The notes beneath the pieces were generated by a model, which made no database searches, had not been told where the DNA came from, and worked only from the letters and a program-made list of their open reading frames with translations. Position numbers and translations under genes: made by a program. Positions 1,314 through 29,222 of a DNA stretch of 32,000 nt are shown piece after piece. The first letter of the stretch is position 1, and every line of letters begins with the position of its first letter. The stretch lies in assembly GCA_963843975.1 (NCBI GenBank), contig CAWJMG010000003.1, positions 30,001 to 62,000 of the forward strand. The letters run 5' to 3'. Origin of the DNA: an uncultured Actinomycetes bacterium. GTDB taxonomy: Bacteria > Actinomycetota > Actinomycetes > S36-B12 > CAIYMF01.

Positions 1314-2426
1314 GTGAGCGAGTCCCGGCGCATCCGCGTGGCCGTCGTCTTCGGCGGCAGGTCCAGCGAGCACGCCATCTCCTGCGTCTCCGCCGGATCC
1401 GTGCTCCGCGCCCTCGACCGTGACCGCTACGACGTCGTCCCCATAGGGCTCACGACCGACGGCCGCTGGGTGCTCGAGAGCGACGACCCCGACCGCTTGC
1501 GCATCACCGACGGCGTCCTGCCGCACGTCGACGGCACCGGCACCGCACTCGTCCTCCCGGGCGACCCCACCCGCCGCGACCTCGAGGTCCACGCGCCCGG
1601 CGACGTGCCCGGCACGCTGGCGGGCGTCGACGTCGTCTTCCCCGTCCTGCACGGCGCGTACGGCGAGGACGGCACGATCCAGGGCCTGCTCGAGATGGCC
1701 GGCGTCCCGTACGTCGGCAGCGGCGTGCTCGCGTCCGCGGCGGCCATGGACAAGGGCGTCATGAAGGCGCTGTTCGCCGGTGCAGGCCTCGAGCAGGCGC
1801 CGTACGCCGTCATCACCGACCGCGACTGGGCTCGCGACCGCGACGCGGCGCTCGCCCGCGTGTCGGCGCTGGGCCTGCCCGTGTTCGTGAAGCCGGCCAG
1901 GGCCGGGTCCTCGCTCGGGATCAGCAAGGTGTCCGACGCCTCCGACCTCGTCGCCGCGATCGAGTTCGCCCGCCAGCACGACCCGCGCGTGGTCGTGGAG
2001 GCCTCGGTCGAGCGCGCCCGCGAGATCGAGTGCGGCGTCCTCGCCGACGCCGACGGCGTCCCGCAGGCCAGCGTCTGTGCGGAGATCGTGGTGAAGGGCG
2101 ACCACGAGTTCTACGACTTCGGGGCCAAGTACCTCGACGACGCCGCCGACCTCGTCGTGCCGGCCGATCTCGATCCCGCGCTGAGCGAGCAGGTGCGGGC
2201 CCTGGCGATCCGGGCCTTCGACGCCCTCGGCTGCGAGGGGCTCGCGCGCTGCGACTTCTTCGTGACGGCCGACGGCCGTGTGGTGATCAACGAGGTCAAC
2301 ACGATGCCGGGCTTCACGTCGATCTCGATGTTCCCCCGCGTGTGGCAGGCGACCGGCGTCGACTACCCGACGCTCGTCGACCGCCTCGTCGCCGACGCGC
2401 TCCGCCGCGGCACCGGCCTGCGCTGA
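1314..2426 (+). CDS. ddl: D-alanine--D-alanine ligase
   Basis: 370-aa ORF. N-terminal RVAVVFGGRSSEHAISCVSA and C-terminal INEVNTMPGFTSISMFP are classic Ddl/ATP-grasp motifs. Confidence 0.95.
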   Translation: MSESRRIRVAVVFGGRSSEHAISCVSAGSVLRALDRDRYDVVPIGLTTDGRWVLESDDPDRLRITDGVLPHVDGTGTALVLPGDPTRRDLEVHAPGDVPGTLAGVDVVFPVLHGAYGEDGTIQGLLEMAGVPYVGSGVLASAAAMDKGVMKALFAGAGLEQAPYAVITDRDWARDRDAALARVSALGLPVFVKPARAGSSLGISKVSDASDLVAAIEFARQHDPRVVVEASVERAREIECGVLADADGVPQASVCAEIVVKGDHEFYDFGAKYLDDAADLVVPADLDPALSEQVRALAIRAFDALGCEGLARCDFFVTADGRVVINEVNTMPGFTSISMFPRVWQATGVDYPTLVDRLVADALRRGTGLR

Positions 2427-2430
2427 CGCC

Positions 2431-4128
2431 TCAGCCGACGATCTCGCTGTCGCCGCGAGTGTCGAGCACGGTGAGGCCGTACGCCACCGCCCACCGGTGG
2501 CCGAGGGCACCGGCGACGTCGGCCCGGCCTGGCGTCGAACCCGGCAGGGCACGCACCACGAGGTCGAGCAGCTCGGCGTCGCCGGCCGGCCCGCCGACCA
2601 GCAGCACGTCGACACCTGTGGGAAGCCCGGACGTCGCCCGGGCGACGTTGTCGCCGACGACGGCGCGCTTGAGGTGCTGGCGCAGCATCCGCCACTCGCC
2701 CGGCGCGAGGCGTCGGTGGAACGGCAGGAGGCCCGCCGGGCCGGGGACGACGAGGGATCCCACCGCGTCGGCAGGCACGGCCGTCTCGACGAAGCGGCGC
2801 TCGCCGTCCTCGCCCACGAGAACGTGCGGGCCCTCGAGCCGTGACGACGCACCGCGCTTGGCCCACTCCGCCGCACCGCGCGGCACGTCGAGCACGTGCG
2901 CGACCGCTGCCGTGAGCAGGTCGCCGGCGCCGGCCACGATGCGCGCGGCCTCGCCGTCGGGCACGACGTCGACCGTGCCGCCGCCGAGGTCGATCACCAG
3001 TGCTTCCGGCCGTGCAGAGGGTGTTGTCATCGCGCCGGTGCGCGCGGCCTCGGCCTCCGACGCGACCCGGGCGACGGGGACCCCGAGGGCGTGCGCGAGC
3101 ACCACTGCTGGGTCGTCGTCGGCGCCGGAGGCTGATGCCAGGGTTGCGACGGCGACAGCGCGGCCGATGACCGACCGGGGCCGTGCGGCGGCGCTCGTGC
3201 CCACGGCGTCGAGGTCGACTACCCACGCATCGTCGACGGCGTGCTCGACGACCCGCCCTCGCTGAGGCAGCCCGACGACGGCCACGACACCTGAAGGCTG
3301 GGGTGCGGCGGCGAGGTCGTGCAGCGACGTCGTAGAACCCGAAGTCGTTCGCGCCCAGGCGATGTCGGCCTCAGCCCCATCACGACGGGGTAGTGCCGGG
3401 CCGATCCCGATGGCGGCGTCACGAAGCCCGCGGAGCGAGGCGGCGACCGCCTCGGCGGCCACGTGCTCGGTGCCGTCGAGGCCGAGCAGCGCCGCGATCC
3501 GGACCGGGTCGACCAGCTGCGCGAGGCCGTGCTCGGCCACCTCGACCGCGACGAGCGAGCAGGCGAGCGCGGCATCGGCGTCGACCTGGTCGACCACGGG
3601 TAGGGGGCGGGTGAGACGTCGGCTCACCAGCACGGCCTCGTCGCCCGCGAGCAGCACGCCCACCACCTCGGCGCCCGAGGACTGCCAGAGGCCGACGCGC
3701 TCCGCAGTGGCCCGGTAGCCGCGCGCGTCGCGGGCCACGAGCACGACCGGCCCAGCCGCCGGCGTCGGGTCGGAGGCGACGTCGACGGGTCGGCCGACTC
3801 CGGCGCCGGAGGTGCCGGGCGTCGCGCTCCCCGACCCGAGCACCCGCAGCCGTCCGGTGTCGGGCGCCGGTGCGGGCAGCACGAGCGCGTGCGAGTCGAC
3901 AGGCCGCTGCGGAGCGACGACCACCCGCGTGACCTCGACGCCCGCCTTGCGGGCGAGCCGGCGTACGACGACCGCGGCGGCCGACGCCGCAGCCGCGGAG
4001 CCCTTGCGGCCTCGCGTGGGGGTGCGCTCCCACACCAGCGGCAGGGGAGGGTCGACCGAGACGTCGACGAGCACGACCTCGGTCGTGGCGTTGCCGACGT
4101 CGACCCCCGCGACGACCGTGCGGTTCAT
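2431..4128 (-). CDS. ddrA: Diol/glycerol dehydratase reactivase, large (alpha) subunit (DdrA/PduG-like)
   Basis: 565-aa ORF. VAGVDVGNATTEVVL and GVLLAGDEAVLVSRRLTRPLPVVDQV align by eye with PduG (IAGIDIGNSSTEVAL; GVILQRDDGVLVSNRLEKPLPIVDEV). Last gene of the dehydratase operon. Confidence 0.8.
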   Translation of the reverse strand: MNRTVVAGVDVGNATTEVVLVDVSVDPPLPLVWERTPTRGRKGSAAAASAAAVVVRRLARKAGVEVTRVVVAPQRPVDSHALVLPAPAPDTGRLRVLGSGSATPGTSGAGVGRPVDVASDPTPAAGPVVLVARDARGYRATAERVGLWQSSGAEVVGVLLAGDEAVLVSRRLTRPLPVVDQVDADAALACSLVAVEVAEHGLAQLVDPVRIAALLGLDGTEHVAAEAVAASLRGLRDAAIGIGPALPRRDGAEADIAWARTTSGSTTSLHDLAAAPQPSGVVAVVGLPQRGRVVEHAVDDAWVVDLDAVGTSAAARPRSVIGRAVAVATLASASGADDDPAVVLAHALGVPVARVASEAEAARTGAMTTPSARPEALVIDLGGGTVDVVPDGEAARIVAGAGDLLTAAVAHVLDVPRGAAEWAKRGASSRLEGPHVLVGEDGERRFVETAVPADAVGSLVVPGPAGLLPFHRRLAPGEWRMLRQHLKRAVVGDNVARATSGLPTGVDVLLVGGPAGDAELLDLVVRALPGSTPGRADVAGALGHRWAVAYGLTVLDTRGDSEIVG

Positions 4129-4137
4129 CGCACCCGC

Positions 4138-4500
4138 TCAGCCCTCGGCCAGGAGGCCACGACGGGCGTACGCCGCTGCGGCCTCGCGGACGAGCGCGGC
4201 GTTGCGGACGGCACCCCGCGACTCCAGCGACGCCGCGATCGACTCGAGCTGCGCGGCGGTCGAGCGCCGCGGGCGGAGCGCGTCGTACACCGCGAGCACC
4301 TCGTCGTCCGGCAGGAGAGTGAGCTCGGCCGCGCGACGCAGGTTGGCCGCGAGCTGCGGGTTGGCGTTGGCCTCGGCGACCGTCGCCTGGTGCTCGAGGG
4401 TGTCGGGGTGGATGCGGATGTCGTCGAGCGAGACGAGACCTTCGCGGACGGCGTCGAGAGTGATCTCGCTGCTGTCGCGGCCGGAACGGGCTGCGGTCAT
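4138..4500 (-). CDS. pduE: B12-dependent diol dehydratase small (gamma) subunit, PduE-like
   Basis: 120 codons at the 3' end of the long 4138..5592 ORF. ATG 4500 overlaps the upstream stop (ATGA). DDIRIHPDTLEHQATVAEANANPQLAANLRRAAELTLLPDDEVLAVYDALRPRRST matches the PduE/DhaB3 core. Confidence 0.85.
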   Translation of the reverse strand: MTAARSGRDSSEITLDAVREGLVSLDDIRIHPDTLEHQATVAEANANPQLAANLRRAAELTLLPDDEVLAVYDALRPRRSTAAQLESIAASLESRGAVRNAALVREAAAAYARRGLLAEG

Positions 4501-6737
4501 CGGAGCACCTCCAGCTCTTCGGGGCCGAGCGCCGGGTCGAGGCAGCCCCGCTCGATCGCGACCAGGGACACCACCTTGGTGTGGAAGCGCGCCTCGATCG
4601 CCATGTCGGAGTAGGGATTCCGGAGCGGCTCTGGGGTCGAGCCCTTGGCGTGACGGCCGGCGTTGGAGCCGAGCGCGCGGTAGAGCTCGGGGGTCACCGT
4701 GGGTGCGACGCTGAACAGCTCGAGGTTGGCCAGCGGTGCGAGGTCGCGTCGGTGGATGAGCGCGGTTCCCTTGGCCTGCAGGCCGATCGCGATGCCGGAT
4801 CCCGCCAGCCTCGCTGCGGTCAGGCCGATGAGCCCGAGGTCGAGGGTGTCGTTGATGCGCACGACCCGCCCGCGGCACCCCTCTTCCTCGAGCCCGGCGA
4901 GCAGCTCCTCGAGCACGTCGTGCACCGACAAGCCCGACAGCGTCGTCCAGATCCGGCGGCCCGTGGCGGCCGAGACACCGATGACGACGTCGGTCGGGTC
5001 TGAGCCGGCGGCGGCCGGGCCGAGCACCCGGAAGGCCGCGGTGCTGCCCGTCGCCTGCTCGCGCAGGAGGTCGTCGACCGAGCGCTGCTGGCGGACGGTG
5101 TTGATCTCGTGCAGCCGCGCTCCGCTCGGCCGGTAGCCCGTGCCGGGGCCGGCGTAGTCGTTCGGGTCGGTCACCAGCGACAGCACGTTCATCTGCTCGT
5201 CGAAGATGGCCGCGGTCTGCAGGTAGTCGCCGCTCACCCGTGCGTGCAGCATCGCCAGAAGCCGCTCGGCCTCCTCGGCGTAGCCGCACGCGTCGAGCGC
5301 CGTGACGACGTCGATCATCGTGACGCCGGACTGCCGGATCACCCGCGAGGCCTCGAGCGGCACCATGAGATCGGCTGCCGGCACGTCCTTGCTGCCAGCG
5401 GCGTCGACCGCCTGCTCGAGCCACTCGTCGTCGAGGTCGGCGAGGCCGAGCCAGCGGTAGACGTCGCGCACGGCCTCGGCGGCCCGGCGGCGCAGCCGTG
5501 CGACCTCGGGCTCGGCCGCGGTACGCAGCCCGCCGTCCACGGTCCAGTCGCGCTGCATGACGAGGTAGTCGTCGATGTCCTCGGAGTTCCACTGGCTCGG
5601 GCCGAACATGTTGTCGTAGCGCTGGATCGAGCCGAAGCCGCTGCAGATGAAGTCTGAGCCGCCGATGAAGATCGGGTGCGTGCGGGAGGTACGCCGCACC
5701 TCCGACTCGCTCATGAGGGCGTCGTTACCGGTGCACGCCTCGAGGTTGCGCAGCATCACCATGAGGTTCTCGGCCATGAGGCTGCGGACGCCGCCCGGCA
5801 CCGAGCCGGCGACCGACGCGGAGTCGATGCCGCCGTTCTGCACGCCCTGCGCGCCCATCGCCCGTGCGAGCGAGACGCATCGGGCCTCGAGGTAGAACAT
5901 CGAGCAGCCCTCGGCACCGCCCATGAGGGCCTCGGAGCCGCCACCCGTCGTCACGCGCATCTTGATGCCGCGGCTGGCATACGCCGAGGTCAGGAACGCC
6001 TTGGACCACGGGGTGTCGTCGCCGTCGACGAAGATCTGCTCGGTGCCGTAGAGCGACACGGTCTCGGCGTACGACACGAGGCCGGCCATGCCGAGCTCGA
6101 GCTCGAGGGCCTCCTCGACCGAGCACTGCACGAGCACGCCGGGCGAGCCCACGGCCGCGCCGATCGACACGGCAACGGCGTTGCTCGGGGCGTCACCCAG
6201 CACCGGCACGGTGGTCTCGATCTCGCGGAACCCGAACGCCGCCGCTGTGGCGGCGTCGGCAGCGAGCAGCAGCGGGTCGTCGGAGCGGTTGGTGACGTGG
6301 GCCTGGTTGCTCGGCGTACGGCGTGCCCTCATCTTGGTCATCGCGATGACGAGCTCGGCCGGCGTCAGCTGGGCGAGCACGCGCGCGAGCTTGGCCGGGG
6401 TGGCACCGGCGGCGAGGCGCACGACCTCCGACCGCGGCACGGCGACGTCCACGAGCATCCGTGCCAGCGCGACGTCGTCGAGGGCCATCACCTCCGCGGC
6501 CACGGACACGTCGATGCCGTGCGCGGCGATGAACGCGTCGACGACGTCGAAGTCGTCCTCGGCCTTCCCGTCGAGCTCGACGACGCGACCGGACGCGTCG
6601 ACGACGAGGCTCGGCACCGGGTCCCCGGGGGAGTCGAACGCCACGAGGCCCAGTGAGGGCTCCTCGACCGCGAACCCGTCGAGGTTGACCCGCTGGGCGT
6701 CCATGAAGCGGAACCGCCCGATCGGCTGGTCAGCCAC
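4497..6737 (-). CDS. pduCD: B12-dependent diol/glycerol dehydratase, large and medium subunits fused (PduC-PduD in one polypeptide)
   Basis: 746-aa ORF; GTG 6737 preceded by GAAGGAGG. The first ~550 aa are co-linear with PduC (MTKMRARRTPSNQAHVTN, GDDTPWSKAFL, YDNMFGPS, NDYAGPGTGYR). The last ~160 aa are PduD-like (VVIGVSAA..., GIAIGLQAKGTALIH), with no stop between the two parts. Confidence 0.9.
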   Translation of the reverse strand: MADQPIGRFRFMDAQRVNLDGFAVEEPSLGLVAFDSPGDPVPSLVVDASGRVVELDGKAEDDFDVVDAFIAAHGIDVSVAAEVMALDDVALARMLVDVAVPRSEVVRLAAGATPAKLARVLAQLTPAELVIAMTKMRARRTPSNQAHVTNRSDDPLLLAADAATAAAFGFREIETTVPVLGDAPSNAVAVSIGAAVGSPGVLVQCSVEEALELELGMAGLVSYAETVSLYGTEQIFVDGDDTPWSKAFLTSAYASRGIKMRVTTGGGSEALMGGAEGCSMFYLEARCVSLARAMGAQGVQNGGIDSASVAGSVPGGVRSLMAENLMVMLRNLEACTGNDALMSESEVRRTSRTHPIFIGGSDFICSGFGSIQRYDNMFGPSQWNSEDIDDYLVMQRDWTVDGGLRTAAEPEVARLRRRAAEAVRDVYRWLGLADLDDEWLEQAVDAAGSKDVPAADLMVPLEASRVIRQSGVTMIDVVTALDACGYAEEAERLLAMLHARVSGDYLQTAAIFDEQMNVLSLVTDPNDYAGPGTGYRPSGARLHEINTVRQQRSVDDLLREQATGSTAAFRVLGPAAAGSDPTDVVIGVSAATGRRIWTTLSGLSVHDVLEELLAGLEEEGCRGRVVRINDTLDLGLIGLTAARLAGSGIAIGLQAKGTALIHRRDLAPLANLELFSVAPTVTPELYRALGSNAGRHAKGSTPEPLRNPYSDMAIEARFHTKVVSLVAIERGCLDPALGPEELEVLR

Positions 6738-7191
6738 CGAGGGCCTCCTTCGCGTCGTGCTCGGCCTCGTGGCCGGAGAAGACGGCGGCCGCCGCGGCCG
6801 CAGCCGCAGCGTCCTGCGCGGCGGTGCCTCCGCTCACGCCGACACCACCGACCACCCGTCCCCTCGACCAGAGCGGCAGGCCGCCCGCGAAGGCGACGAA
6901 GCGGCCGCCGTCCGCGGCGTACATGCCGACGAGCTCGCCGCCGTCGACCACGAGCGGCCCGAGCTCGGCCGTGGCCGCGCGGTGCGCCACCGAGGTGTAC
7001 GCCTTGTCGCGGGCCAGCGTGGGCCCGGCGATCTCGGCGCCGTCCATGCGCTCGAATGCGACGAGGTGGCCGCCGGCGTCCACCACGGCCACCGACACGA
7101 GCGCGTCGAGCGAGGCCGCCTCGGCGCGGGCGGTCGCGCACATGGCGAGCGCCAGGTCAAGGTCGATCTCGGTGCGGGTCGTGCGGGCCAC
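6730..7191 (-). CDS. GlcG/HbpS/PduO-C-terminal-type (DUF336) heme-binding protein
   Basis: 153-aa ORF. GGLPLWSRGRVVGGVGVSGGTAAQD is the family signature. Its stop overlaps the pduCD start by 8 nt. Confidence 0.8.
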   Translation of the reverse strand: MARTTRTEIDLDLALAMCATARAEAASLDALVSVAVVDAGGHLVAFERMDGAEIAGPTLARDKAYTSVAHRAATAELGPLVVDGGELVGMYAADGGRFVAFAGGLPLWSRGRVVGGVGVSGGTAAQDAAAAAAAAAVFSGHEAEHDAKEALGG

Positions 7192-7215
7192 GGGAGCCTC
7201 CTGGGGGAGAAGGGA

Positions 7216-8233
7216 TCAGCGGGCGAGGGCGCGCAGCGCCGCATGCGTGCCGCGCATCGCGACGGCGCCGGCGAGCACGGACTTCGGCACCTTCGCCACG
7301 ACGGTGTAGTTGGTGTCGACGACGTTCGCCACGGGGGTGAGCGCGGTCTGCGAGACGAGCTGGTAGGCATCGAGCGTCGACTGCCCCGTGCAGCTCGGCG
7401 ACCCAGAGGACCATCTGCTGGTGGGCGATGCGGAACGCGTCCTCGAGCGGCCGCGATGAGCCCGTCGTCATGATGAACGTGTCGTCCTCCATGCGCGGCC
7501 ACGGGGTGGGCATGCCCTTGATGAGGTCGAGGATCACCACGGTGTCCATCGCGCACTCGACTGCGACGCCGCACGTCTCGCCCTCGCCCTGCCGGGCGTG
7601 GCCGTCGCCGAGGCTGAACAGCGCGCCCTCGACGTTCACCCCCAGGTAGCAGGTGGTGCCCGCGCGCATCTCGGGTGTGTCCATGTTGCCGCCCCAGTCG
7701 CCCGGGGTGAGCGAGCTGCGCACCTCGCCGAGCGGGGGAGCGACGCCGACCGTGCCGTGCATCGGGTCGAGGGGGAGATCGGCGGTGAACGTCGTGTCGG
7801 CGGCGCTGTAGCGCACGAGCCGGTCGGTGGCGTCGATCTCGTAGATCCAGGTGCGCTCGAGCAGTGCGGGCTGCAGGCTCGCGGTCTGCGGCGTCGAGGT
7901 CAGCGAGCCGAAGAACGGCACCGTGCTGCTGACCCCCCACGCCTCGCGCGGCTCGATCGAGACGAAGTGCACGGCGAGCGTGTCGCCGGGCTGGGCGCCC
8001 TCGACGTAGAACGGGCCGGTCTGCGGGTTGAGCAGCCGGGGGTCGCACACCTCGCTGGGCAGGTCGGACGTCGAGCGCACGCGGCCGCCGAAGCAGTCGA
8101 AGGTCCAGGTCGACAGGCGGGTGCGCGGTCGCACCGAGGCGACGGGCGCGACGCCGCCGAACGTGTACGTGAGGGCCGTGGGGTCGCCGTCAGGGTCCGG
8201 GGCCCAGAACAGGTCGGTCAGCGAGTCGGTCAC
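7216..8233 (-). pseudogene. Acetamidase/formamidase-family amidohydrolase, reading frame broken by one extra nucleotide near 7384-7390
   Basis: GTG 8233 (SD GGGAGA) opens VTDSLTDLFWAP...GNMDTPEMRAGTTCYLGVNVEGALFSLGDGHARQGEGETCGVAVE (FmdA/AmiF-like). After ...QQMVLWVAEL the ORF-track frame becomes Arg-rich nonsense. The adjacent frame reads (T/H)GQSTLDAYQLVSQTALTPVANVVDTNYTVVAKVPKSVL...ALAR then TGA at 7216-7218. Span is 1018 nt (3n+1). Confidence 0.8.
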
Positions 8234-8278
8234 GGCAGCAGTCTCCCTGTCGGGGCGGGGGTGCGGAGGGCGAACGAA

Positions 8279-8312
8279 GGGGGTGCGCCGCGCATCTGCG
8301 CGACGCACCCCC
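8279..8312 (-). terminator. GC-rich hairpin just downstream of the permease stop (candidate terminator/attenuator)
   Basis: GGGGGTGCGCCGCGCA (8279-8294) pairs with TGCGCGACGCACCCCC (8297-8312), 15 of 16 positions. It lies 16 nt after the permease stop (8328-8330). On the minus-strand RNA it is followed by CUUCGUUCG, a poor U-tract. Confidence 0.45.
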
Positions 8313-8327
8313 TGTCGGTGGTGCGGG

Positions 8328-9941
8328 TCAGACGCGCTCGTGCGCCTCCTCGAGGGTGGTCTGCCCGATCTCCGCGAAGATGTCGGGCTTGGCCTTGCGC
8401 ATCCACAGGGCGTAGCCGAAGCCGAGCACCAGGATTCCGACGATGTACCAGGGCATGAGCTGGAACACCAGGCTGTCCGAGCCCAGACCAGCCGCGAAGG
8501 CCCTGTTCGTCCAGAGCAGGTAGAGCGCGTAGAGCATGCCCGCCGCGCCCACGAGCGGTGCGATGAGCGTGGTGATGACGTTGCCCTTGTGCACCTTCTT
8601 GACCCAGAAGTACGAGATCACGGCGAACGACGTGATCGTCTGGACGAGCAGGATCATGGCGGTGCCGATGACGGCGATGAGGCCATAGACGTTCACGTAG
8701 GGAACGAGCTCCGGCGTCGGGACCATGTTGCCGTCGGCGTCGGGGACGTACACGTTCGTGAACAGGAGGAACGCCACCAGGATCACCGTGGTGATGATCG
8801 TCTGCAGGATGACTGCTGCCGCGGGCGACTGGTGCTTCGGGTTGATGGTGCCGAACGAGTTCCGCATCCAGCTCCACGCACCCTCGCGAGCGAGCGCGTA
8901 GATGTAGCGGGCCGAAGCGTTGCCGAACGCGAGCGCGCAGGCGAAGGAACCGATGACGAGCAGGATCTTGTAGATCGTGGTCATGAAGTCACCCATGTTG
9001 GCGGTGACGAGACCGAGCCACAGGTCGACGGGGTTGGCGCCCGCCGACAGCTCGACGGACTTGGCCGCACCGTTGCCGACAACGACGACCCACGACATGA
9101 GCGTGTAGAAGAGGCCGAGGCCGATGACCGCGATCATGGTCGCCCGCGGGACGTTCTTCTTGGGGTCCTTGGACTCCTCGCCATAGACCGCGGTGGTCTC
9201 GTAGCCGATCCAGGACCAGAAGGCGAAGAAGATGCCGATCGCCGCGGCACCCTGGGCCACGCCAGTGCCGAACGCGCCCTCGTCGAGGGACTTGAATGCG
9301 TTCTGCACCGGCACGATGTCGCTGAACATGAGGCCGTCCGGGCCGCCCTTGGCGAACACGGTCACGGCAAGCCCGAGCAGCAGCAGCACCTCGGCGACGA
9401 GCGTGACGCTGAGGACTCCGGCAGCGACCGTGATGGAGAAGTAGGTCAGGACGCCGATCGCGATCGTGCCGATGATGGCGATGACGATCCAGTTCACGTT
9501 GATGCCGGCGGGGACGAGGATGTAGCTCGTCGCGAAGTACGCGAATCCACCGATGAGGGACGCCTCGAACACGATGTAGGCGACAGCTGCGAGCAGGCCT
9601 GAGGCCATGCCCCAGACCTGGCCGAGCCCCTGGGAGATAAACCCGTAGAAGGCTCCGGCCGTCGTCACGTACTTCGCCATGGCGACGAAGCCGATCGTGA
9701 AGATCGTCAGGACGATGGTGGCGAACAGGTAGCCCGCGGAGGCGCCGATCCCGTTGCCGTAGCCGATGGCGATCGGGACGTTGAAGCTCATCGCGGTGAT
9801 GGGGGCCGCGTTCGCCACCGCCATGAACAGAACGCCGACGAGGCCCACGGCCCCTGCCTTGAGCCGGACCTCCTCCTTCGGGCTGACGTGGTGGTCGCCC
9901 GGGAGTGCGACGGGACCGTCGGGACCGTGTTCGGTCGTCAT
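8328..9941 (-). CDS. APC-superfamily amino acid/amine permease
   Basis: Long hydrophobic multi-segment protein (AVGLVGVLFMAVANAAPITAM..., FFAFWSWIGYETTAVYGEESKDPKKNVPRA). ATG 9941 preceded by AAAGGAA was preferred over the ORF-track start at 10004. Confidence 0.85.
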   Translation of the reverse strand: MTTEHGPDGPVALPGDHHVSPKEEVRLKAGAVGLVGVLFMAVANAAPITAMSFNVPIAIGYGNGIGASAGYLFATIVLTIFTIGFVAMAKYVTTAGAFYGFISQGLGQVWGMASGLLAAVAYIVFEASLIGGFAYFATSYILVPAGINVNWIVIAIIGTIAIGVLTYFSITVAAGVLSVTLVAEVLLLLGLAVTVFAKGGPDGLMFSDIVPVQNAFKSLDEGAFGTGVAQGAAAIGIFFAFWSWIGYETTAVYGEESKDPKKNVPRATMIAVIGLGLFYTLMSWVVVVGNGAAKSVELSAGANPVDLWLGLVTANMGDFMTTIYKILLVIGSFACALAFGNASARYIYALAREGAWSWMRNSFGTINPKHQSPAAAVILQTIITTVILVAFLLFTNVYVPDADGNMVPTPELVPYVNVYGLIAVIGTAMILLVQTITSFAVISYFWVKKVHKGNVITTLIAPLVGAAGMLYALYLLWTNRAFAAGLGSDSLVFQLMPWYIVGILVLGFGYALWMRKAKPDIFAEIGQTTLEEAHERV

Positions 9942-10183
9942 ACTCGGGTGTTCCTTTCGCTGGAGGCGCTGGGGTGCTTGCCGCCTACCGCCGGGCCGGC
10001 CCAAGCCCGGCCCGTGCGTGTTGCGGAGTATTCACTGGACCTTTGGACCGAATCAAGGCCTTGGGGGAACCGTTTACCTCGTCGAAACGGTCACCCGTTC
10101 GGTCCAGGCTCACGCGGGGTTCGGGGAAATCTGCGCGTAACGGTCTGCTGAACCGCCGCCTCGCACCAGCACTGGTGAAGATT

Positions 10184-10216
10184 TGGTCTTGTTTTGGTCT
10201 GGTCTTTCGGTATGCT
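10184..10216 (+). promoter_or_regulatory. Candidate promoter of the BMC operon with three direct TGGTCT repeats (possible GntR/HutC operator)
   Basis: TGGTCT at 10184-10189, 10195-10200 and 10200-10205. TTGTTT (10189-10194), 16 nt, then TATGCT (10211-10216) resembles a sigma-A-type -35/-10. SD GGGAGG lies at 10241-10246 before ATG 10251. Confidence 0.35.
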
Positions 10217-10250
10217 CGTGCACGACGTCGCTGGCTGACCGGGAGGTGCC

Positions 10251-11576
10251 ATGACCGATCACGCCCGGGTCGAGGACGGGGAGACGCCGCTCGACTACGG
10301 CTTCTTCTCGTTCGCCTCCAAGACCGAGGTCCTGGACAAGAGCAAGGAGTTCTGGAACCCGAACAAGACCACCTTCTGGTCCGAGTCGGGCGTCCCGCTG
10401 GTCATCGACCGGCGCGAGGACTACTTCATCTACGACGTCACCGGCAAGCGCCTCATCGACGTCCACCTCAACGGCGGCACCTACAACCTCGGGCACCGCA
10501 ACCCCGAGATGGTGCAGGCCATCACCGTGGCCATGCAGCATTTCGACATCGGCAACCACCACTTCCCCTCCCTCGCGCGCACGGCCCTCGCCGAGGCGCT
10601 GATCGCGAGCGCGCCGAAACACATGTCGAAGGTCGTCTACGCCTCGGGCGGGGGGGAGGCCATCGACATCGCCCTCAAGACAGCGCGCCACACGACCCAG
10701 AAGCGCAAGATCGTGTCCATCGTCCGCGCGTTCCACGGGCACACGGGCCTGGCGGTCGGAGCCGGCGACGACCGGTTCTCCAAGCTGTTCCTGTCGGACC
10801 AGCCTGAGGACTTCCCGCACGTGCCCTTCAACGACCTCGAGGCGATGGAGGAGGCGCTGCGTGGGCGCGACGTGGCTGGCGTCATCCTGGAGACGATTCC
10901 CGCCACCTACGGCTTCCCGCTCCCCGACCCCGGCTACCTCGAGGGTGTGAAGCGCCTCTGCGAGAAGTACGACGCCCTCTACATCGCCGACGAGGTGCAG
11001 ACCGGCCTCATGCGCACCGGTGAGTTGTGGGGCATCACCAAGCACGGCATCGAGCCTGACATCCTGGTGACGGGCAAGGGCATCTCGGGCGGCATGTACC
11101 CCATCGCGGCGGTGCTCGTGAGCGAGCGCGCCTCCGGCTGGCTCGACGAGGACGGCTTCGGCCACATCTCGACCTTCGGCGGTGCCGAGCTCGGCTGCAT
11201 CGCCGCGCTCAAGGCGCTCGAGATCTGCAACCGCGCCGAGACCCGCTCGATGGTCCACTACATCGCGGACTTCATCGGCCGGGGCCTGCGCGACATCCAG
11301 GCCACCTACCCCGACTGGTTCGTCGGCATCCGCCAGAACGGCGTGGTGATGGGCCTGGAGTTCGCCCGCCCGCAGGGCGCCAAGGCCGTGATGAAGCGCC
11401 TGTACGAGAACGGCGTCTGGGCGATCTTCTCCACCCTCGACCCGCGGGTGCTGCAGTACAAGCCCGGAATCCTCCTCAAGCCCGAGGTGGCCGAGGAGCT
11501 GCTCGACCGCACCGAGGTCGGCATCGCCCTGGCCCGCGAGGACGTCCTGGGCGCTGGCAAGAAGGCGTGGCGCTGA
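10251..11576 (+). CDS. Class-III aminotransferase-fold PLP enzyme; candidate 1-amino-2-propanol O-phosphate phospho-lyase of the RMM pathway
   Basis: 441-aa ORF. ADEVQTGLMRTG and VTGKGISGG (PLP lysine) are class-III aminotransferase motifs. It is the first gene of the RMM-type operon, where this fold is assigned the phospho-lyase role in M. smegmatis. Confidence 0.8.
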   Translation: MTDHARVEDGETPLDYGFFSFASKTEVLDKSKEFWNPNKTTFWSESGVPLVIDRREDYFIYDVTGKRLIDVHLNGGTYNLGHRNPEMVQAITVAMQHFDIGNHHFPSLARTALAEALIASAPKHMSKVVYASGGGEAIDIALKTARHTTQKRKIVSIVRAFHGHTGLAVGAGDDRFSKLFLSDQPEDFPHVPFNDLEAMEEALRGRDVAGVILETIPATYGFPLPDPGYLEGVKRLCEKYDALYIADEVQTGLMRTGELWGITKHGIEPDILVTGKGISGGMYPIAAVLVSERASGWLDEDGFGHISTFGGAELGCIAALKALEICNRAETRSMVHYIADFIGRGLRDIQATYPDWFVGIRQNGVVMGLEFARPQGAKAVMKRLYENGVWAIFSTLDPRVLQYKPGILLKPEVAEELLDRTEVGIALAREDVLGAGKKAWR

Positions 11577-13142
11577 TGGTCGAGACCATGTTTGAGATGC
11601 CGCTCGACCCCGCCGGCGTGCCGCGCGGGCGGGCCATGATCGAGCGAGCCGAGTGGGCCGCGCGCGCGTTCGCGTCGTACGACGCCGCCACCGTGCAGCG
11701 GATCGTCGACGCTGCCGCCGCCGCGGGTGCCGCGCACGCCAAGGAGCTCGCCGAGGCGGCCGTGCGCGAGACGGGCTTCGGCGTGGCCGAGCACAAGGTG
11801 CTCAAGAACCTCGCCTGCTCGCGCGGCATCGCCGAGCTCTACAGGGCCGCCGACTACGTCGACGTCGTGGTCGACGCCGACGCGAAGATCGTCTCGGTGC
11901 CGCGGCCGGCCGGCGTGGTGCTCGCGCTGACGCCGTCGACGAACCCTGTCGCCACCGTGTACTTCAAGACCCTGCTCGCGCTGCTCACGCGCAACGCCGT
12001 CGTGATCTGCCCGCACCCCTACGCCAAGGAGGTGTGCGCCAAGGCCGCTCGCATCATGGCCGAGGCGGCGGTGGCGGCGGGCGCTCCCGACGGCTGCATC
12101 CAGGTCGTCGACGAGCCGTCGATCCCGCTGGTCAACGCGCTCATGACCGACCCTCGCACCGACGTCATCGTGGCGACGGGCGGCTCGGCGATGGTGCGCT
12201 CGGCTTACCGCAGCGGCAACCCCGCGATCGGCGTCGGGCCGGGCAACGTGCCGGTGCTCGTCGACGCCTCGGCCGACCTCGCGGCGGCGGCCAAGCGGAT
12301 CGTCGACAGCAAGGCGTTCGACAACTCGATCCTGTGCACCAACGAGAGCGTGCTGGTCGTCGAGAAGTCGGTGGCCAAGCAGCGTGTCCCAGCTCGAGCG
12401 CGCGGGCGCCCACCTGCTCGCGCCCGACGAGCGCGACCGGGTGCGCGACCTGATCTTCCCGGGCGGCCGGTTCGACACCGCGTGGGTGGGCAAGGACGCG
12501 ACGGACATCGCGAAGGCGGCCGGCGTGCGCGTCGGCGCGCGCACGCGGATCCTGCTCGCGCCGTTCGACCTCGTCGTGCCGGAGGAGCCGCTCGCGCACG
12601 AGAAGCTCTGCCCGGTGCTCGGCATGGTGGTCGTCGAGACCGCCGCCCGCGGCATCGACGCCGCGCGCGCCGTCCTGCGCATCACCGGCGAGGGCCACTC
12701 GGCCGCGATCCACAGCACGGATGCGCGCACGATCATGGAGTTCTCGGCCGCGGTCCGCGTCCTGCGGGTGTCGGTCAACGTCGGCAACAGCCTCGGCAGC
12801 TCCGGCATCGAGACCAACCTCGCGCCGTCGATGACGATCGGCACCGGCTTCTTCGGCCGCTCGTCGGTGGGGGAGAACCTCGAGCCCAAGCACCTCGTCA
12901 ACTGGACCCGCCTGGCCTGGAACGCCGACTCCTCGGTGCGCATGCCCGACGTCGCAGCGATCTCGCCGTGGCACGCGCCCGACGGCGCCGTCCCGGCGTA
13001 CCCGCGCGCGTCGAACGACGGCGGCGCACCGCTGGTGCCCTCGCCCACGGCTGAGGTCGCGGTCGAGGGTGCGCCCGACAGCCTGCGCGACGAGATCCGC
13101 CGGCTCATCATCGAAGAGCTCAACGCGATCGTGCGGGGCTGA
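11576..13142 (+). pseudogene. CoA-acylating aldehyde dehydrogenase (EutE/PduP-like), frame broken by one extra nucleotide near 12380-12386
   Basis: ATG 11576 overlaps the upstream stop (TGATG). The N-terminal part (11567..13054 ORF) stays sensible up to ...AFDNSILCTNESVLVVEKSVAKQ (catalytic Cys), then turns Arg-rich. The next frame (12384..13142) continues VSQLERAGAHLL...EKLCPVLGMVVVE...GEGHSAAIHS...MTIGTGFFG. Span is 1567 nt (3n+1). Confidence 0.85.
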
Positions 13143-13145
13143 CCC

Positions 13146-13748
13146 GTGGCCGAGCTCCGCTCCTTCATCTTCCTCGACCGGCTGCAGCCGCAGACCATGA
13201 GCTACATGGGCTCGACCGTCAAGGGAGCCCTGCCGCGCGCCGACATGGCCTCGCTGATCATCGAGGTGGCGCCGGGCCTGGACATCGAGCCGCTCACCGA
13301 CGTCGCCCTGAAGTACGCCGAGGTGCAGGCCGGGATCCTGGTGGTGGAGCGGCAGTACGGCTACCTCGAGGTGCACGGCCCGACCGGCCAGGTGAAGGCC
13401 GCCGGCGAGGCGGTGCTCGACTCGCTCGGCGCCGACCCGGACCAGGCCACGAAGCCGCAGGTGCTCGCCTCACGCATCGTGACGATGCTCGACCGCCAGC
13501 ACGCATTCCTCATCAACCGCAACAAGGCCGGCTCGATGGCGCTGCCGGGCGAGTCGCTGTTCGTGCTCGAGATGGCGCCGGCGTCGTACGCGATCCTCGC
13601 GACCAACGAGGCCGAGAAGGCCGCGGCCATCAAGGTCGTGGACTTCCGCATGATCGGTGCGACGGGCCGCGTGTACCTCTCCGGCAAGGAGAGCGACGTC
13701 CGTCAGGCGGCCGAGGCCGCCGAGGCCGCCCTGGGGAGAAGCCGATGA
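13146..13748 (+). CDS. BMC shell protein, double-domain (BMC-T class), paralog 1
   Basis: 200 aa. Co-linear with the 14775..15425 product (LIIEVAPGL.IE, GIL.VERQ.G.LEVH, INRN...SM.LPG.SL.V.EM.PA, NEAEK, MIGA.GRVY). Size and position match the tandem-domain RMM shell proteins. Confidence 0.75.
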   Translation: MAELRSFIFLDRLQPQTMSYMGSTVKGALPRADMASLIIEVAPGLDIEPLTDVALKYAEVQAGILVVERQYGYLEVHGPTGQVKAAGEAVLDSLGADPDQATKPQVLASRIVTMLDRQHAFLINRNKAGSMALPGESLFVLEMAPASYAILATNEAEKAAAIKVVDFRMIGATGRVYLSGKESDVRQAAEAAEAALGRSR

Positions 13749-14188
13749 GCACCGGCCTCGGCGACTCCGAGCGCGACCTGCTGCGCCAGATGGTGCGCCA
13801 GGTCCTGCAGGAGGTCGTGCCGGAGACGATGGCTGCGGCCTCGGCGTCAGGCGGCGCGTCCGACGAGACCGTCGTGCTGACCAACGACGCCGAGCTGGAG
13901 GCGTTCGTGCGCCGCGTCGCCGTGCTCTGCGAGGACCCCGCCGAGCGCGAGGCGCTGCGCAGCGGGAGCCGCCGCTTCCACCTGGCCGGGCACCCGACGA
14001 CGTCGGCGGCTGCTCCCGCCTCCGCAGCCGCGGTGGTCCGGGTCGACAAGGGGGCCGTCACCGAGCGGCACGTGCGCGAGGCGGCGTCCCAGGGCGCCGA
14101 CCTCGTCCTGGGACGCGGCGCCGTCCTGACTCCGCTCGCGCGCGACCGCGCGCGGGCTGCGGGCGTCCGGATCACGAAGGAGAAGTGA
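13745..14188 (+). CDS. Hypothetical BMC-locus protein (amphipathic N-terminal helix, Ala/Ser linker, ~50-aa C-terminal domain)
   Basis: 147 aa; ATGA overlap upstream and TGATG overlap downstream. N-terminus is SERDLLRQMVRQVLQEVV. C-terminus is VVRVDKGAVTERHVREAASQGADLVLGRGAVLTPLARDRARAAGVRI. It occupies the slot of the uncharacterised gene between shell genes in RMM loci. Confidence 0.7.
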   Translation: MSTGLGDSERDLLRQMVRQVLQEVVPETMAAASASGGASDETVVLTNDAELEAFVRRVAVLCEDPAEREALRSGSRRFHLAGHPTTSAAAPASAAAVVRVDKGAVTERHVREAASQGADLVLGRGAVLTPLARDRARAAGVRITKEK

Positions 14189-14778
14189 TGCTGCGCGGAC
14201 GGGTGATCGGGAACGTGTGGGCCAGCCGGAGGCTGGACGAGATCCCTTCAGGCGCGTTCCTGGAGGTGCAGGTCGAGGGTGGCGCGACGCTCATCGCGTT
14301 CGACGTCCTCGGCAGCGGGATCGGGGAGGCCGTGCTCGTGTCCACGGGGTCGGTCGCGGCCTCGTGGTTCCCGGGCGACGCACCGCCGATCGACGCGCTC
14401 ATCATCGGCTCGATCGACGAGAAGCCGGGCAGCGCAGCTCCCGGACCACAGCCCCGCGCCGCACGCCGGCGCGGTCAACGAGGAGGAACACGCATGTCGA
14501 ACAACGCGATCGGTCTCATCGAGACCAAGGGGTACGTCGCTGCACTCGCCGCCGCCGACGCGATGGTGAAGGCCGCGAACGTCGTGATCGTCAGCAAGGA
14601 CACCGTGGGCGACGGCCTGGTGGCCGTGACCATCGTCGGCGACGTCGGCGCGGTCAAGGCTGCGACCGAGGCCGGTGCCGAGACGGCGTCGTCGGTCGGA
14701 GAGCTCGTCTCCGTGCACGTCATCCCGCGTCCGCACGCCGAGCTCAGCAAGCACTTCACGGTCAGCGGCGACGCGTGA
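14188..14778 (+). CDS. Continuous ORF: BMC-P (EutN/CcmL pentamer) domain, 21-aa linker, then BMC-H domain
   Basis: MLRGRVIGNVWASRRLDEIPSGAFLEVQVEGGATLIAFDVLGSGIGEAVLVSTGS...IDALIIGSID is EutN/CcmL-like (aa 1-81). There is no stop before TGA 14776-14778. Confidence 0.85.
   Translation: MLRGRVIGNVWASRRLDEIPSGAFLEVQVEGGATLIAFDVLGSGIGEAVLVSTGSVAASWFPGDAPPIDALIIGSIDEKPGSAAPGPQPRAARRRGQRGGTRMSNNAIGLIETKGYVAALAAADAMVKAANVVIVSKDTVGDGLVAVTIVGDVGAVKAATEAGAETASSVGELVSVHVIPRPHAELSKHFTVSGDA
14494..14778 (+). CDS. BMC-H hexameric shell protein (PduA/EutM-like), from an internal start
   Basis: MSNNAIGLIETKGYVAALAAADAMVKAANV...GDVGAVKAATEAG...GELVSVHVIPRPH is canonical Pfam00936-type sequence. It has its own SD, GAGGAGGAA (14480-14488), before ATG 14494. 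Confidence 0.95.
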   Translation: MSNNAIGLIETKGYVAALAAADAMVKAANVVIVSKDTVGDGLVAVTIVGDVGAVKAATEAGAETASSVGELVSVHVIPRPHAELSKHFTVSGDA

Positions 14779-15425
14779 GCGCGGCCCCGATCGCGGGGCC
14801 GGAGCTGCGTGTCTACCTGCTGATCGAGGATCTGCAGCAGCAGTTCGCGGCGTATCTCGGTACGCCGACACGAGCACGCGGCTACCCGCCGTACGCCGGG
14901 CAGCACGCGCTCATCATCGAGGTCGCACCCGGCCTCGCCATCGAGCGCGTGACGCACCAGGCGCTGACGTCGGTGCCCGACATCGAGCCGGGCATCCTCT
15001 TCGTCGAGCGTCAGTTCGGCGTGCTCGAGGTGCACGCGTCGTCGCTCGACGACGTGCTGCGCGCAGGCGAGGCGATCCTCGACGGGCTCGGCGCGGAACC
15101 GGCCCACCAGCTGGCCCCGCGCGTGCTGTACCACGACGTCATCGAGCACGTCACGGACATGCACGCCGTCATCATCAACCGCAACCGGCAGGCCTCGATG
15201 CTGCTGCCGGGGCAGTCGCTGCTGGTCTACGAGATGACCCCTGCGCTGTTCGCCGCCGTCGCGGCGAACGAGGCCGAGAAGGTGGCGCCGGAGAACACGC
15301 TCGTCGACGTGCAGATGATCGGCGCCGCCGGCCGCGTCTACATCGGCGGCACGACCGAGGGCGTCACGAAGGCGCGCGACGCGATCACGAAGGTCCTCGA
15401 CTCGATCGAGGGCCGTCGGCACTAA
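14775..15425 (+). CDS. BMC shell protein, double-domain (BMC-T class), paralog 2
   Basis: 216 aa. GTG 14775 overlaps the BMC-H stop (GTGA). Co-linear with the 13146..13748 product. Ends in TAA, which directly abuts the tandem repeat. Confidence 0.75.
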   Translation: MSAAPIAGPELRVYLLIEDLQQQFAAYLGTPTRARGYPPYAGQHALIIEVAPGLAIERVTHQALTSVPDIEPGILFVERQFGVLEVHASSLDDVLRAGEAILDGLGAEPAHQLAPRVLYHDVIEHVTDMHAVIINRNRQASMLLPGQSLLVYEMTPALFAAVAANEAEKVAPENTLVDVQMIGAAGRVYIGGTTEGVTKARDAITKVLDSIEGRRH

Positions 15426-15533
15426 GTTCCAGCAAGCACGGGTTCCAGCAAGCACGGGTTCCAGCAAGCACGGGTTCCAGCAAGCACGGGTTCCAGCAAG
15501 CACGGGTTCCAGCAAGCACGGGTTCCAGCACGG
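15426..15533. repeat. Perfect tandem repeat: 6 copies of the 16-mer GTTCCAGCAAGCACGG plus one 12-nt copy lacking AGCA
   Basis: Units start at 15426, 15442, 15458, 15474, 15490 and 15506, all identical. A seventh copy, GTTCCAGCACGG, spans 15522-15533. The array is intergenic between BMC-T2 and the kinase. Confidence 0.97.
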
Positions 15534-15566
15534 CACGTCCCTGTCGTACGACTCGTAGGGAGAACG

Positions 15567-16548
15567 GTGAGTTCCGAGCTCGACACCGACCACCTCGAGG
15601 TCTTCGCGCGCGGCGCGGTGGCCGAGCACGGCATGCCGGACGCCGAGATCACGCTGCTGAACGTGTCGGAGAACGCGACGTTCCGTGCCGACTCCGCCGA
15701 CGGCCGTCGGCTGGTGCTCCGGGTGCACCGCACCGGCTACCACTCGCGCGAGGCGATCGAGAGCGAGCTGGCTTGGATCTCGGCGCTGCGCGCGGACGGG
15801 ATCGTGCACACGGCCCCCGTGATCCCCACCCCTGACGGCCGCGACATCGTCGCGGTGCGCCACCCGGGCGGCGAGGAGCGGCAGGTCGTCGCGTTCGAGT
15901 GGATGAACGGGCACGAGCCGCCCGAGGACCGTCTCGTCGACGACTTCCGCGAGCTCGGTGCCATCACCGCACGCCTGCACCGGCACGCGCGCGAGTGGCA
16001 GCGCCCGGCCGGTTTCACCCGGTTCCGTTGGGACTTCGACACCTCGCTCGGTGCGAACGGGCACTGGGGCCGTTGGCAGGACGGGCTCGGCATGGGACCG
16101 TCCGAGCTCGAGGTGCTCGGTCGTGCGGCCGACGCCGTGCAGCGCCGGCTCGCCGCGTTCGGCGCCGGGCCCGACCGCTTCGGCCTCGTCCACGCCGACA
16201 TGCGCCTCGCCAACCTCCTCGTCGACGGTGACAGCGTCTGCGTGATCGACTTCGACGACTGCGGCCTGTCCTGGTACCTCTACGACCTCGGGTCGTCGCT
16301 GTCGTTCATCGAGCACCTGCCGGTCGTGCCCGAGCTGCATCGACTCGTGGATCACCGGCTACCGCACCGAGGGCACGCTGAGCGCCGAGGAGGTCGCCGA
16401 GCTCCCGACCTTCGTGATGCTGCGCCGCCTGCTGCTCGTCGCGTGGATCGGCTCGCACTCCGCCGTCCCGGAGGCTCAGGCCCTCGGCGCCGACTTCACC
16501 ACCGTGTCCTGCGACCTCGCGGAGAAGTACCTCGTCCAGTTCGGCTGA
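15567..16548 (+). pseudogene. APH-family (phosphotransferase) amino-alcohol kinase, RMM-type; frame broken by one extra nucleotide near 16335-16340
   Basis: GTG 15567 (SD GGGAGAA). Sensible sequence runs to ...VIDFDDCGLSWYLYDLGSSLSFIEHLPVVPEL and then becomes nonsense. The next frame reads IDSWITGYRTEGTLSAEEVAELPTFVMLRRLLLVAWIGSHSAVPEAQALGADFTTVSCDLAEKYLVQFG, stop 16546-16548. That stretch is co-linear with the intact paralog at 20532..21533. Span is 982 nt (3n+1). Confidence 0.85.
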
Positions 16549-16564
16549 CCTGCCCGGAGGATCC

Positions 16565-17354: not shown

Positions 17355-17396
17355 ACGACGTACCGTGGTCGCACCGACACCGCACCGGGGGGTGAG

Positions 17397-18194: not shown

Positions 18195-18207
18195 CCGGAG
18201 GGTCGTC

Positions 18208-21533: not shown

Positions 21534-21591
21534 GCTCCCCCTCCGGTCCGCTCGACCACGTGACGTCGTGGCCGTCCTGCTGCGCTGTGGC

Positions 21592-21701: not shown

Positions 21702-21754
21702 ATCTGCCGGTGGGGCTCGCCTCCACCATCCGTACCCGAGGAAGGGCGGCACCT

Positions 21755-29210: not shown

Positions 29211-29222
29211 GGCCCCAGCCGG

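Follow-up and report, generated by a model that had tools for sequence, protein, structure and literature searches.

What does a coenzyme B12-dependent diol dehydratase do beside a bacterial microcompartment (BMC) operon that comes with a signature enzyme of its own? The question is raised by the window analysed here, the whole of a 32,000-nucleotide stretch from an uncultured Actinomycetes bacterium (72% GC; assembly GCA_963843975.1, contig CAWJMG010000003.1, positions 30,001 to 62,000), in which a minus-strand operon at 2431-9941, encoding a fused dehydratase (PduCD), its gamma subunit (PduE) and a reactivase, lies back to back with a plus-strand operon for a microcompartment of the RMM type. 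Microcompartments are generally described with one signature enzyme each.

The pairing as such is already catalogued. Axen 2014 (PMC4207490) set RMM2 apart from RMM1 by diol-dehydratase genes on the opposite strand, in 4 genomes, and gave two readings: either the dehydratase is unused or the BMC is bifunctional. Both hypotheses of an earlier, sequence-only reading of this window (a hybrid PDU/RMM organelle, or a cytosolic dehydratase feeding an encapsulated aldehyde dehydrogenase) are therefore in print there, as are the two RMM subtypes to which it had referred. A later catalogue (Sutter 2021, supplement) lists 32 mostly proteobacterial loci as RMM2/AAUM2 ('RMM2/PDU2') and views the dehydratase as incidental; its RMM1/AAUM1 comprises 140 loci from Actinobacteria and Proteobacteria, with one BMC-H, one BMC-P and two BMC-Tdp. 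RMM2 has also been reported in Paracoccus yeei, for a strain growing on propanediol (Asija 2021). Our literature search found no experimental paper on the combined dehydratase/RMM system, as the sequence-only reading had surmised.

Here we argue that 2431-9941 is the dehydratase arm of a 15.8-kb island of the RMM/AAUM type, in Axen's RMM2 arrangement, and that its B12 module and the RMM aldehyde sink probably form a functional partnership, to which we give a probability of roughly 0.6 on the basis of comparative sequence evidence. The dehydratase would turn a vicinal diol into an aldehyde, and the aldehyde dehydrogenase (ALDH) of the RMM operon, which carries a C-terminal encapsulation peptide, would most likely finish that aldehyde to acyl-CoA in the microcompartment. 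Two routes would then feed the organelle, one through the kinase and the phospho-lyase acting on aminopropanol, the other through the B12 dehydratase acting on a diol. What is new is the wide conservation of the pairing, its three architectures, the one-way dependence between its parts, their joint loss as a block, the absence of an encapsulation peptide from the dehydratase and a change in its substrate pocket.

Results

Linkage of the dehydratase module to the RMM operon

The genes of the island were mapped from codon-position GC together with Pfam and NCBIfam:

2431-4128, minus strand: reactivase alpha subunit (PduG/DdrA-like), 565 aa; Pfam DDR 2.6e-36, DDR_swiveling 5.7e-17
4138-4500, minus strand: dehydratase gamma subunit (PduE), 120 aa; Pfam Dehydratase_SU 3.8e-36
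4497-6737, minus strand: alpha-beta-fused B12 diol/glycerol dehydratase (PduC-PduD), 746 aa; Dehydratase_LU 3.5e-232, Dehydratase_MU 5.9e-25
6730-7191, minus strand: GlcG/HbpS-like protein (DUF336, PduO-C-terminal-like), 153 aa; Pfam HbpS-like 1.6e-32
about 7216-8308, minus strand: FmdA/AmdA amidase, with a frame break near 7375-7390 as assembled; Pfam FmdA_AmdA 2e-23
8328-9941, minus strand: APC-family amino acid/ethanolamine-type permease, first gene of its operon; Pfam AA_permease_2 5e-27
9942-10250, no strand: shared divergent control region of 309 nt, intergenic between the permease and aminotransferase genes
10251-11576, plus strand: class-III aminotransferase-fold enzyme, the RMM signature enzyme and presumed aminopropanol-phosphate phospho-lyase; Pfam Aminotran_3 7.1e-71
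11567-13142, plus strand: acylating ALDH, with a frame break near 12383 as assembled; Pfam Aldedh, residues 23-274 only
13146-13748, plus strand: first BMC-Tdp (double-permuted, CcmP-like), here BMC-T1; NCBIfam CcmP 1.2e-64, Pfam BMC
13745-14188, plus strand: 147-aa protein with an N-terminal encapsulation-peptide-like helix; motif ERDLLRQMVRQVLQEVV
14188-14778, plus strand: BMC-P (14188 to about 14470) and BMC-H (14494-14778); EutN_CcmL residues 1-77 and BMC residues 107-182 of one open reading frame
14775-15425, plus strand: second BMC-Tdp (BMC-T2), 47% identical to BMC-T1
15567-16548, plus strand: APH kinase of the aminopropanol kinase type, with a frame break near 16337 as assembled; Pfam APH 3.7e-27
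16565-17354, plus strand: short-chain dehydrogenase/reductase (SDR) of the aminopropanol dehydrogenase type, with a frame break near 16864 as assembled; adh_short_C2 6.9e-36, C-terminal part only
17397-18194, plus strand: GntR/HutC regulator with a UTRA domain, the last gene of the island; Pfam UTRA 5.2e-40, GntR 1.3e-16

Pfam bears out all six minus-strand genes named in the sequence-only reading (permease, amidase, GlcG-like protein, fused PduCD, PduE and reactivase) at these positions. Neighbours among them overlap (GTGGCTGA, ATGA) or stand 9-25 nt apart, the GlcG-like stop overlapping the PduCD start and the PduE ATG overlapping the PduCD stop (ATGA), and because the junctions are so tight the six genes fit a single transcript from the 309-nt shared region. 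The permease, which starts with an ATG at 9941 behind the ribosome-binding site AAGGA, has a weak NCBIfam match to an ethanolamine permease. On the plus strand, the RMM operon (10251-18194) is complete, and its kinase is of a type that Mallette and Kimber are said to have characterised. Genome-wide we find one shell-gene set, one dehydratase and one close ALDH of the RMM type, every other ALDH match being at most 29% identical.

The host is a Longivirga actinobacterium, known from an assembly of 4.19 Mb in 3 contigs with a marker completeness of 92.9%. Its nearest named relative, Longivirga aurantiaca CGMCC 4.7317 (genome G020), is a cultured carrier of the island, with a PduCD 98% identical to that of the window in a collinear locus of 88-90% nucleotide identity.

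How faithfully do the two operons stay together? Our samples comprised 80 species-level loci centred on homologues (71-98% identity) of the fused dehydratase and 80 loci centred on BMC-T homologues, 40 of each with full flanks, out of at least 159 dehydratase and at least 411 BMC-T loci in total, along with 41 genomes of close relatives. RMM shell genes lie within 10-12 kb of the fused dehydratase in 38 of its 40 full-flank loci, and in a 39th (L099) they lie 12.4 kb off on the same contig. The sequence-only reading had reckoned with the possibility that orthologous genomes never keep the operons adjacent; adjacency is in fact kept in these 38, and in three architectures. Twenty-five loci are divergent, as in the window, some of them without amidase, GlcG or permease in between; six are convergent, with the RMM genes downstream of the reactivase; and in seven everything runs on the same strand, from aminotransferase to GntR and on into PduCD-PduE-reactivase, with PduCD starting 12-60 nt past the GntR stop behind its own ribosome-binding site. 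The pairing has survived at least two rearrangements, and with loci in which all genes run the same way, the case that Axen made from opposite strands against a dehydratase in use falls away.

The close relatives tell the same story. All 15 genomes with PduCD also have the RMM BMC-T, and the only other credible BMC-T is a divergent one (39% identity) in G032, a match in G017 being marginal. In a congener (G021) the block 2428-18206 is missing as one unit, leaving the flanking ddl and TfoX-like genes 35 nt apart. This defines an island with sharp borders between ddl and the TfoX_N-like gene (right boundary 18206/18207); no mobility genes were seen in the block. In two further relatives (G009, G011) the TfoX-like gene is missing as well.

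The minus-strand operon is itself a composite. The permease and aminotransferase genes diverge in loci of either kind, those that have the dehydratase and those that lack it, and the amidase adjoins the permease, also in three loci that have no dehydratase (L175, L177, L187). In most loci, type B and L142 among them, the gene immediately upstream of PduCD is the GlcG-like one, and in L142 GlcG-PduCD-PduE-reactivase sits downstream of GntR while amidase and permease remain on the other side. Since permease and amidase travel with the RMM side and GlcG-PduCD-PduE-reactivase moves separately, the operon consists of an RMM importer with an optional amidase, followed by a mobile B12 module. The earlier picture of one dehydratase operon therefore stands as far as gene packing goes, but not for the permease and amidase, which belong to the RMM side.

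Where does this leave the locus among catalogued types? With PduCD, PduE and reactivase encoded on the minus strand at a distance of 3.5 kb from the aminotransferase gene, the window falls into RMM2 as Axen defined it. The two share the gene set from permease to GntR and the B12 dehydratase genes on the opposite strand, and both are without a phosphotransacylase (PTAC) and an alcohol dehydrogenase; what was described from 4 genomes now extends to dozens of actinobacterial species and to same-strand and convergent forms. The comparison with Sutter 2021 turns out otherwise: judged from the descriptions, the window is not RMM2/AAUM2 in that sense (Proteobacteria/Marinimicrobia, with another gene order), as its host is actinobacterial and its shell set that of RMM1. 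The RMM1/AAUM1 locus of Mycolicibacterium smegmatis mc2 155, covered in the Sutter 2021 supplement and reportedly by Mallette and Kimber 2017 and 2018, has the same shell inventory (one BMC-H, one BMC-P, two different BMC-Tdp) and the same aminotransferase-fold enzyme, acylating ALDH, APH kinase, SDR, GntR and permease; unlike the window, loci of the M. smegmatis type lack an adjacent dehydratase. Going by shell content, the 2021 catalogue would probably file our locus under RMM1/AAUM1, whose text omits dehydratases.

The shared control region

Between the two operons, at 10182-10217, a triple direct repeat T(T/C)GGT(C/A)T (TTTGGTCTTGTTTTGGTCTGGTCTTTCGGTATGCT) overlaps what is likely the -10 element of the promoter for the aminotransferase gene. 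From 13 orthologous sites we derived a matrix that gives this repeat 59.4 bits; nothing else in the window exceeds 12 bits, and 20 shuffles yielded no site at or above 8 bits, the threshold for reporting. Of 40 orthologous regions, 13 contain the strict motif. Its half-site T(T/C)GGT(C/A)(T/C) is found at 8.5 per kb in the 40 orthologous intergenic regions versus 0.88 per kb across the loci overall, about a 10-fold difference. On the permease side (about 10030-10060) the window reads TTGATTCGGTCC...GAATACT, and a conserved element, CTTGATTCGGTCC ... (C/G)ATACT, sets a half-site between -35 and -10; the strict pattern of promoter plus half-site recovers only 8 of the 40 regions, as the element is visible by eye but poorly captured by a pattern. 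We infer from these repeats that one HutC-type GntR repressor would act on both operons. The operator matrix (36 nt, and also its 25-nt core), built from divergent-type loci, found nothing in convergent or same-strand loci.

Consensus promoter and terminator scans of 2300-10300 returned nothing, which is uninformative in a 72% GC actinobacterium, and Rfam detected no riboswitch in the window, including no B12 riboswitch. In the 5' leader of the permease gene, just downstream of the permease-side -10, one locus (L024) and about 30 others carry a conserved palindrome of the CRP/GlxR type, TGTGA-N6-TCAC (for example GTGTGAGCCCGATCAC), which spans high- to low-GC relatives and appears degenerate in the window (about 9960-10020).

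The dehydratase and its substrate pocket

We take the catalytic and Ca-binding set to be, in diol dehydratase numbering, Gln141, His143, Glu170, Glu221, Gln296, Asp335 and Ser362, a list drawn partly from the mutant table of PMC7674605. The fused protein scores 552-584 bits against the alpha subunits of solved diol (1DIO) and glycerol (1IWP/1MMF) dehydratases, and it aligns to glycerol dehydratase (GDH) without a gap anywhere in the active site. Every Ca-binding and catalytic residue is conserved: Q145, H147, E225, Q300, D339 and S366 correspond to GDH Q142, H144, E222, Q297, D336 and S363, and the Glu aligned to GDH E171 is kept as well. Because every one of these residues is in place, the enzyme should convert a vicinal diol to an aldehyde.

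While the Klebsiella enzymes (PddABC, 1DIO; glycerol dehydratase, 1IWP/1MMF) share the Ca-binding and catalytic residues with the fused clade, Ser301 and Gln336 of their C3 pocket are replaced, here by Asp305 and Ala340. Among 110 fused homologues the Ser301 position is Asp in every one, and the Gln336 position is Ala in 107, Asn in 2 and Ser in 1; in M. wolinskyi, a paralogue that is not fused has the canonical Ser and Gln. In the classical enzyme Ser301 contacts the C3 hydroxyl of glycerol, and the S301A and Q336A variants show a 6- to 40-fold higher Km for propanediol (PMC7674605; Yamanishi 2012). Natural alpha-beta-fused dehydratases are mentioned in PMC7674605 for M. smegmatis and Mesorhizobium loti, with Liu 2010 as the source; our literature search found no paper on the Asp/Ala pocket variant. 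With both residues that contact the C3 group of the substrate changed, the production of propionaldehyde from 1,2-propanediol, which the sequence-only reading took for granted, becomes an assumption. A C3-substituted and possibly amine-bearing diol would be at least as likely a substrate as plain 1,2-propanediol: the pocket carboxylate would suit a cationic or hydrogen-bonding substituent, and an amino-diol would be an attractive candidate given the amino-alcohol genes nearby. Against the amino-diol idea, unlinked mycobacterial fused copies sit among lipid genes.

For the use of propionyl-CoA downstream and for B12, the genome has methylmalonyl-CoA mutases, a PduO-type adenosyltransferase and CobS. 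That the dehydratase uses the RMM ALDH is the step that we infer: the genome has a single acylating ALDH of the RMM type, encoded in the RMM operon, and for this reason the aldehyde would most likely be finished by the microcompartment.

Other features of the window and samples

BMC-P and BMC-H share one open frame in the window, where L. aurantiaca has a TAG after ...SIDETAGAQQ. Their spacer differs from that of L. aurantiaca by several small indels, with the BMC-H ribosome-binding site and ATG kept, and the open frame may be a real P-H read-through or an assembly artefact. Between BMC-T2 and the kinase, at 15426-15530, lies a perfect 16-nt tandem repeat (GTTCCAGCAAGCACGG, 6.6 copies, 100% identical), absent from the orthologous 40-nt gap in L. 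aurantiaca.

A second cluster, at 20532-30749, is also concerned with amine catabolism. Its genes are those for an APH-family paralogue of the RMM kinase (47% identity), RidA, two proteins resembling glutamine synthetase, a C26 peptidase of the gamma-glutamyl hydrolase type, an SDR, a second class-III aminotransferase and an AMP-binding ligase, and looks like a gamma-glutamylation route for amines.

Several metagenome-assembled genomes (MAGs) with implausible taxonomic labels carry loci whose BMC-T is 64-84% identical to that of the island (L025, L030, L065, L117 and L166, all labelled Bifidobacterium breve; L128, Gemmatimonadota; L070, Gammaproteobacteria). Mislabelling or mis-binning seems more likely here than transfer.

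Discussion

Partner or incidental neighbour

The strongest competitor of a functional partnership is the view of the 2021 supplement, that an ordinary cytosolic diol/glycerol dehydratase happens to share an island with a microcompartment to which it has no functional tie. A good number of observations weigh against partnership and several of them speak directly for an incidental neighbour. Two related MAGs, L091 (the 40th full-flank locus) and L093, carry the fused dehydratase in assemblies without any BMC-T, and two Mycolicibacterium species carry a fused copy (61-62% identical) unlinked to their RMM locus. In M. wolinskyi this copy adjoins WS/DGAT, PBP and GDSL lipase genes, for which reason we also rejected the notion that the dehydratase always stands beside amine genes. 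Around BMC-T, the dehydratase is present in 21 of the 40 full-flank loci and missing from 19; of five RMM-only genomes checked, three have no such dehydratase anywhere, and the other two are the Mycolicibacterium species with the unlinked copy. Furthermore, the sampled species are kin, so that locus counts exceed the number of independent events. A search of the genome, 92.9% complete, gave no PduL (PF06130), and no alcohol dehydrogenase that could recycle cofactors turned up, though no separate search for PduQ was made.

The remaining adverse points concern targeting. The ALDH ends, after a variable Pro/Ala-rich linker, in an amphipathic helix of the form (E/A)LR(D/E)EIRRL(I/V)(I/V)EEL..., an encapsulation peptide (LRDEIRRLIIEELNAIV, 13083-13139) that is conserved in orthologues. 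The 147-aa protein begins with a helix that nearly matches it and is likewise conserved, and its C-terminal 45 residues weakly resemble the end of the TIGR02536 ethanolamine-utilisation family (E 0.004). A search of all six frames of the 32-kb window found the peptide motif in these two proteins only, and we rejected a hidden encapsulation peptide in the dehydratase operon accordingly. Fan and Bobik reportedly found that in PDU enzymes the N-terminal regions of the beta and gamma subunits carry the targeting peptides. Here the beta part has no counterpart to the first 48 residues of the K. oxytoca beta subunit and begins to align at residue 49, while PduE residues 9-116 align to residues 60-168 of the 173-residue K. 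oxytoca gamma subunit, with roughly the first 51 missing; across 19 orthologues no dehydratase subunit has an N-terminal extension, in any architecture. But this test is a weak one and cannot separate cargo from non-cargo, since the accepted signature enzyme, the aminotransferase-fold protein, also lacks an encapsulation peptide (as seen at the N-termini of its orthologues). We would put the chance that the dehydratase is inside the shell at about one in three. Encapsulation would need a route other than a peptide of its own, for example through the peptide-bearing 147-aa protein, a candidate scaffold or cargo organiser.

Set against this, several observations are hard to reconcile with an incidental neighbour. 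Adjacency in 38 or 39 of 40 loci has been kept through at least two rearrangements, in seven species the dehydratase lies within the RMM operon just after GntR, in the window it is predicted from the junctions to be co-transcribed with the RMM permease, and in a congener both operons were lost as one block. The genome has no other acylating ALDH of the RMM type, and the 2021 count covers the proteobacterial RMM2 class, not actinobacterial loci. The dependence is one-way, because the dehydratase is almost always found with RMM genes and RMM genes are often found without it. Taken together, we consider an incidental neighbour unlikely and prefer a partnership in which the RMM operon provides the aldehyde sink.

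Such a partnership does not amount to a hybrid organelle in the PDU sense, which was one of the options raised before. As in the PDU system of Salmonella enterica, a B12 dehydratase with its reactivase would yield an aldehyde that an encapsulated acylating ALDH turns into acyl-CoA. Unlike that system, the window has an alpha-beta-fused dehydratase without beta/gamma N-terminal targeting regions, an altered substrate pocket, a C-terminal peptide on the ALDH, a shell of the RMM type and neither PduH nor PduL. The predicted reactivase is present as its alpha subunit, which scores 151 bits against NCBIfam reactive_PduG (equivalog cut-off 400 bits); a beta subunit (PduH) was not found, there being only one Dehydratase_MU domain genome-wide.

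One pathway in series

A second alternative has the two operons working in series, the diol being an intermediate made from aminoacetone or aminopropanol via lactaldehyde and the dehydratase extending the same pathway. Among other aminopropanol BMC pathways, Ravcheev 2019 (PMC6620236) describes such a sequence as scenario 2, from aminopropanol to lactaldehyde to 1,2-propanediol by an aminotransferase and an SDR, and Asija 2021 cites Mallette and Kimber 2018 for a proposed route from aminoacetone to propionyl-CoA. Tight linkage and shared regulation would fit one pathway as well as two. However, about half of the RMM loci, those of the M. smegmatis type included, keep the same enzymes without a dehydratase, the kinase fits the phospho-lyase route to propionaldehyde, and a plain propanediol enzyme would have no need of the altered C3 pocket. 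We therefore regard a series pathway as quite improbable.

Frame breaks as probable errors rather than decay

The least probable account is that the locus is decaying, with ALDH, kinase, SDR and amidase as pseudogenes that leave behind a stand-alone dehydratase. Its attraction is easily seen: as assembled, the four genes each switch frame midway (7375-7390, 12377-12389, 16330-16345 and 16860-16870), four breaks within 10 kb compare with about 0.7 expected at the genome-wide rate, and dehydratase, shell genes and permease are intact. Yet a codon-score detector that we wrote for frame breaks, which flags these four and no others in the window and gives no hit in the relatives' control loci, counts 306 across the genome (7.3 per 100 kb), with ligA, ftsK, murG and pyrG among them. 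A living cell cannot have these genes broken. Coding signal is strong on both sides of each of the four, and all four genes are intact in L. aurantiaca (amidase 363 aa, ALDH 522 aa, SDR 262 aa, kinase), against which three breaks are one-base insertions, of the GAGCTC-plus-one kind, and one is a two-base deletion; at the amidase break a GAGCTC site has gained one base, GTG-AGCTC being read as GTGCAGCTC. Genome-wide, too, breaks are enriched at GAGCTC-plus-one-base words (AGCTTC, 39 observed vs 2.3 expected; AGCTGCA, 37 vs 1.5; GAGGCTC and GAGCCTC, 24 vs 1.5 each). Together with the 92.9% completeness of the 3-contig assembly, this led us to reject true pseudogenisation of the RMM operon. The four breaks are most likely assembly errors, and the pattern probably reflects a systematic sequencing, basecalling or assembly error at a GAGCTC-like motif, possibly a methylated one. 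In the same genome, the PduO-type adenosyltransferase (C1:105080-105584) and one methylmalonyl-CoA mutase (C1:529737-531279) are each split into two adjacent frames, as further cases of frame error in this assembly.

What a two-entry organelle would mean

If the changed pocket is taken at face value, the partnership might go further. Tentatively, and as a possibility that we ourselves rate low, the Asp-bearing fused dehydratases may form an undescribed subclass that acts on a diol with a substituent at C3, probably an amine as in 3-amino-1,2-propanediol, and hands a reactive amino-aldehyde to the RMM compartment. RMM would then be a true two-signature-enzyme metabolosome, whose second enzyme is recruited without a peptide, for instance via the 147-aa protein.

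For this genome, the immediate lesson is that the frame breaks are not to be read as pseudogenes. For the family, the RMM2 pairing was the first hint of an organelle with two entries, which the 2021 catalogue set aside as incidental; near-obligate linkage, the same-operon form, block loss and one-way dependence support reopening the two-entry question against that dismissal. The acidic pocket, in turn, may mean a substrate class for B12 eliminases that has gone unrecognised, which would matter for annotation, where propanediol or glycerol dehydratase is the routine name for such genes, and for the engineering of multi-input compartments.

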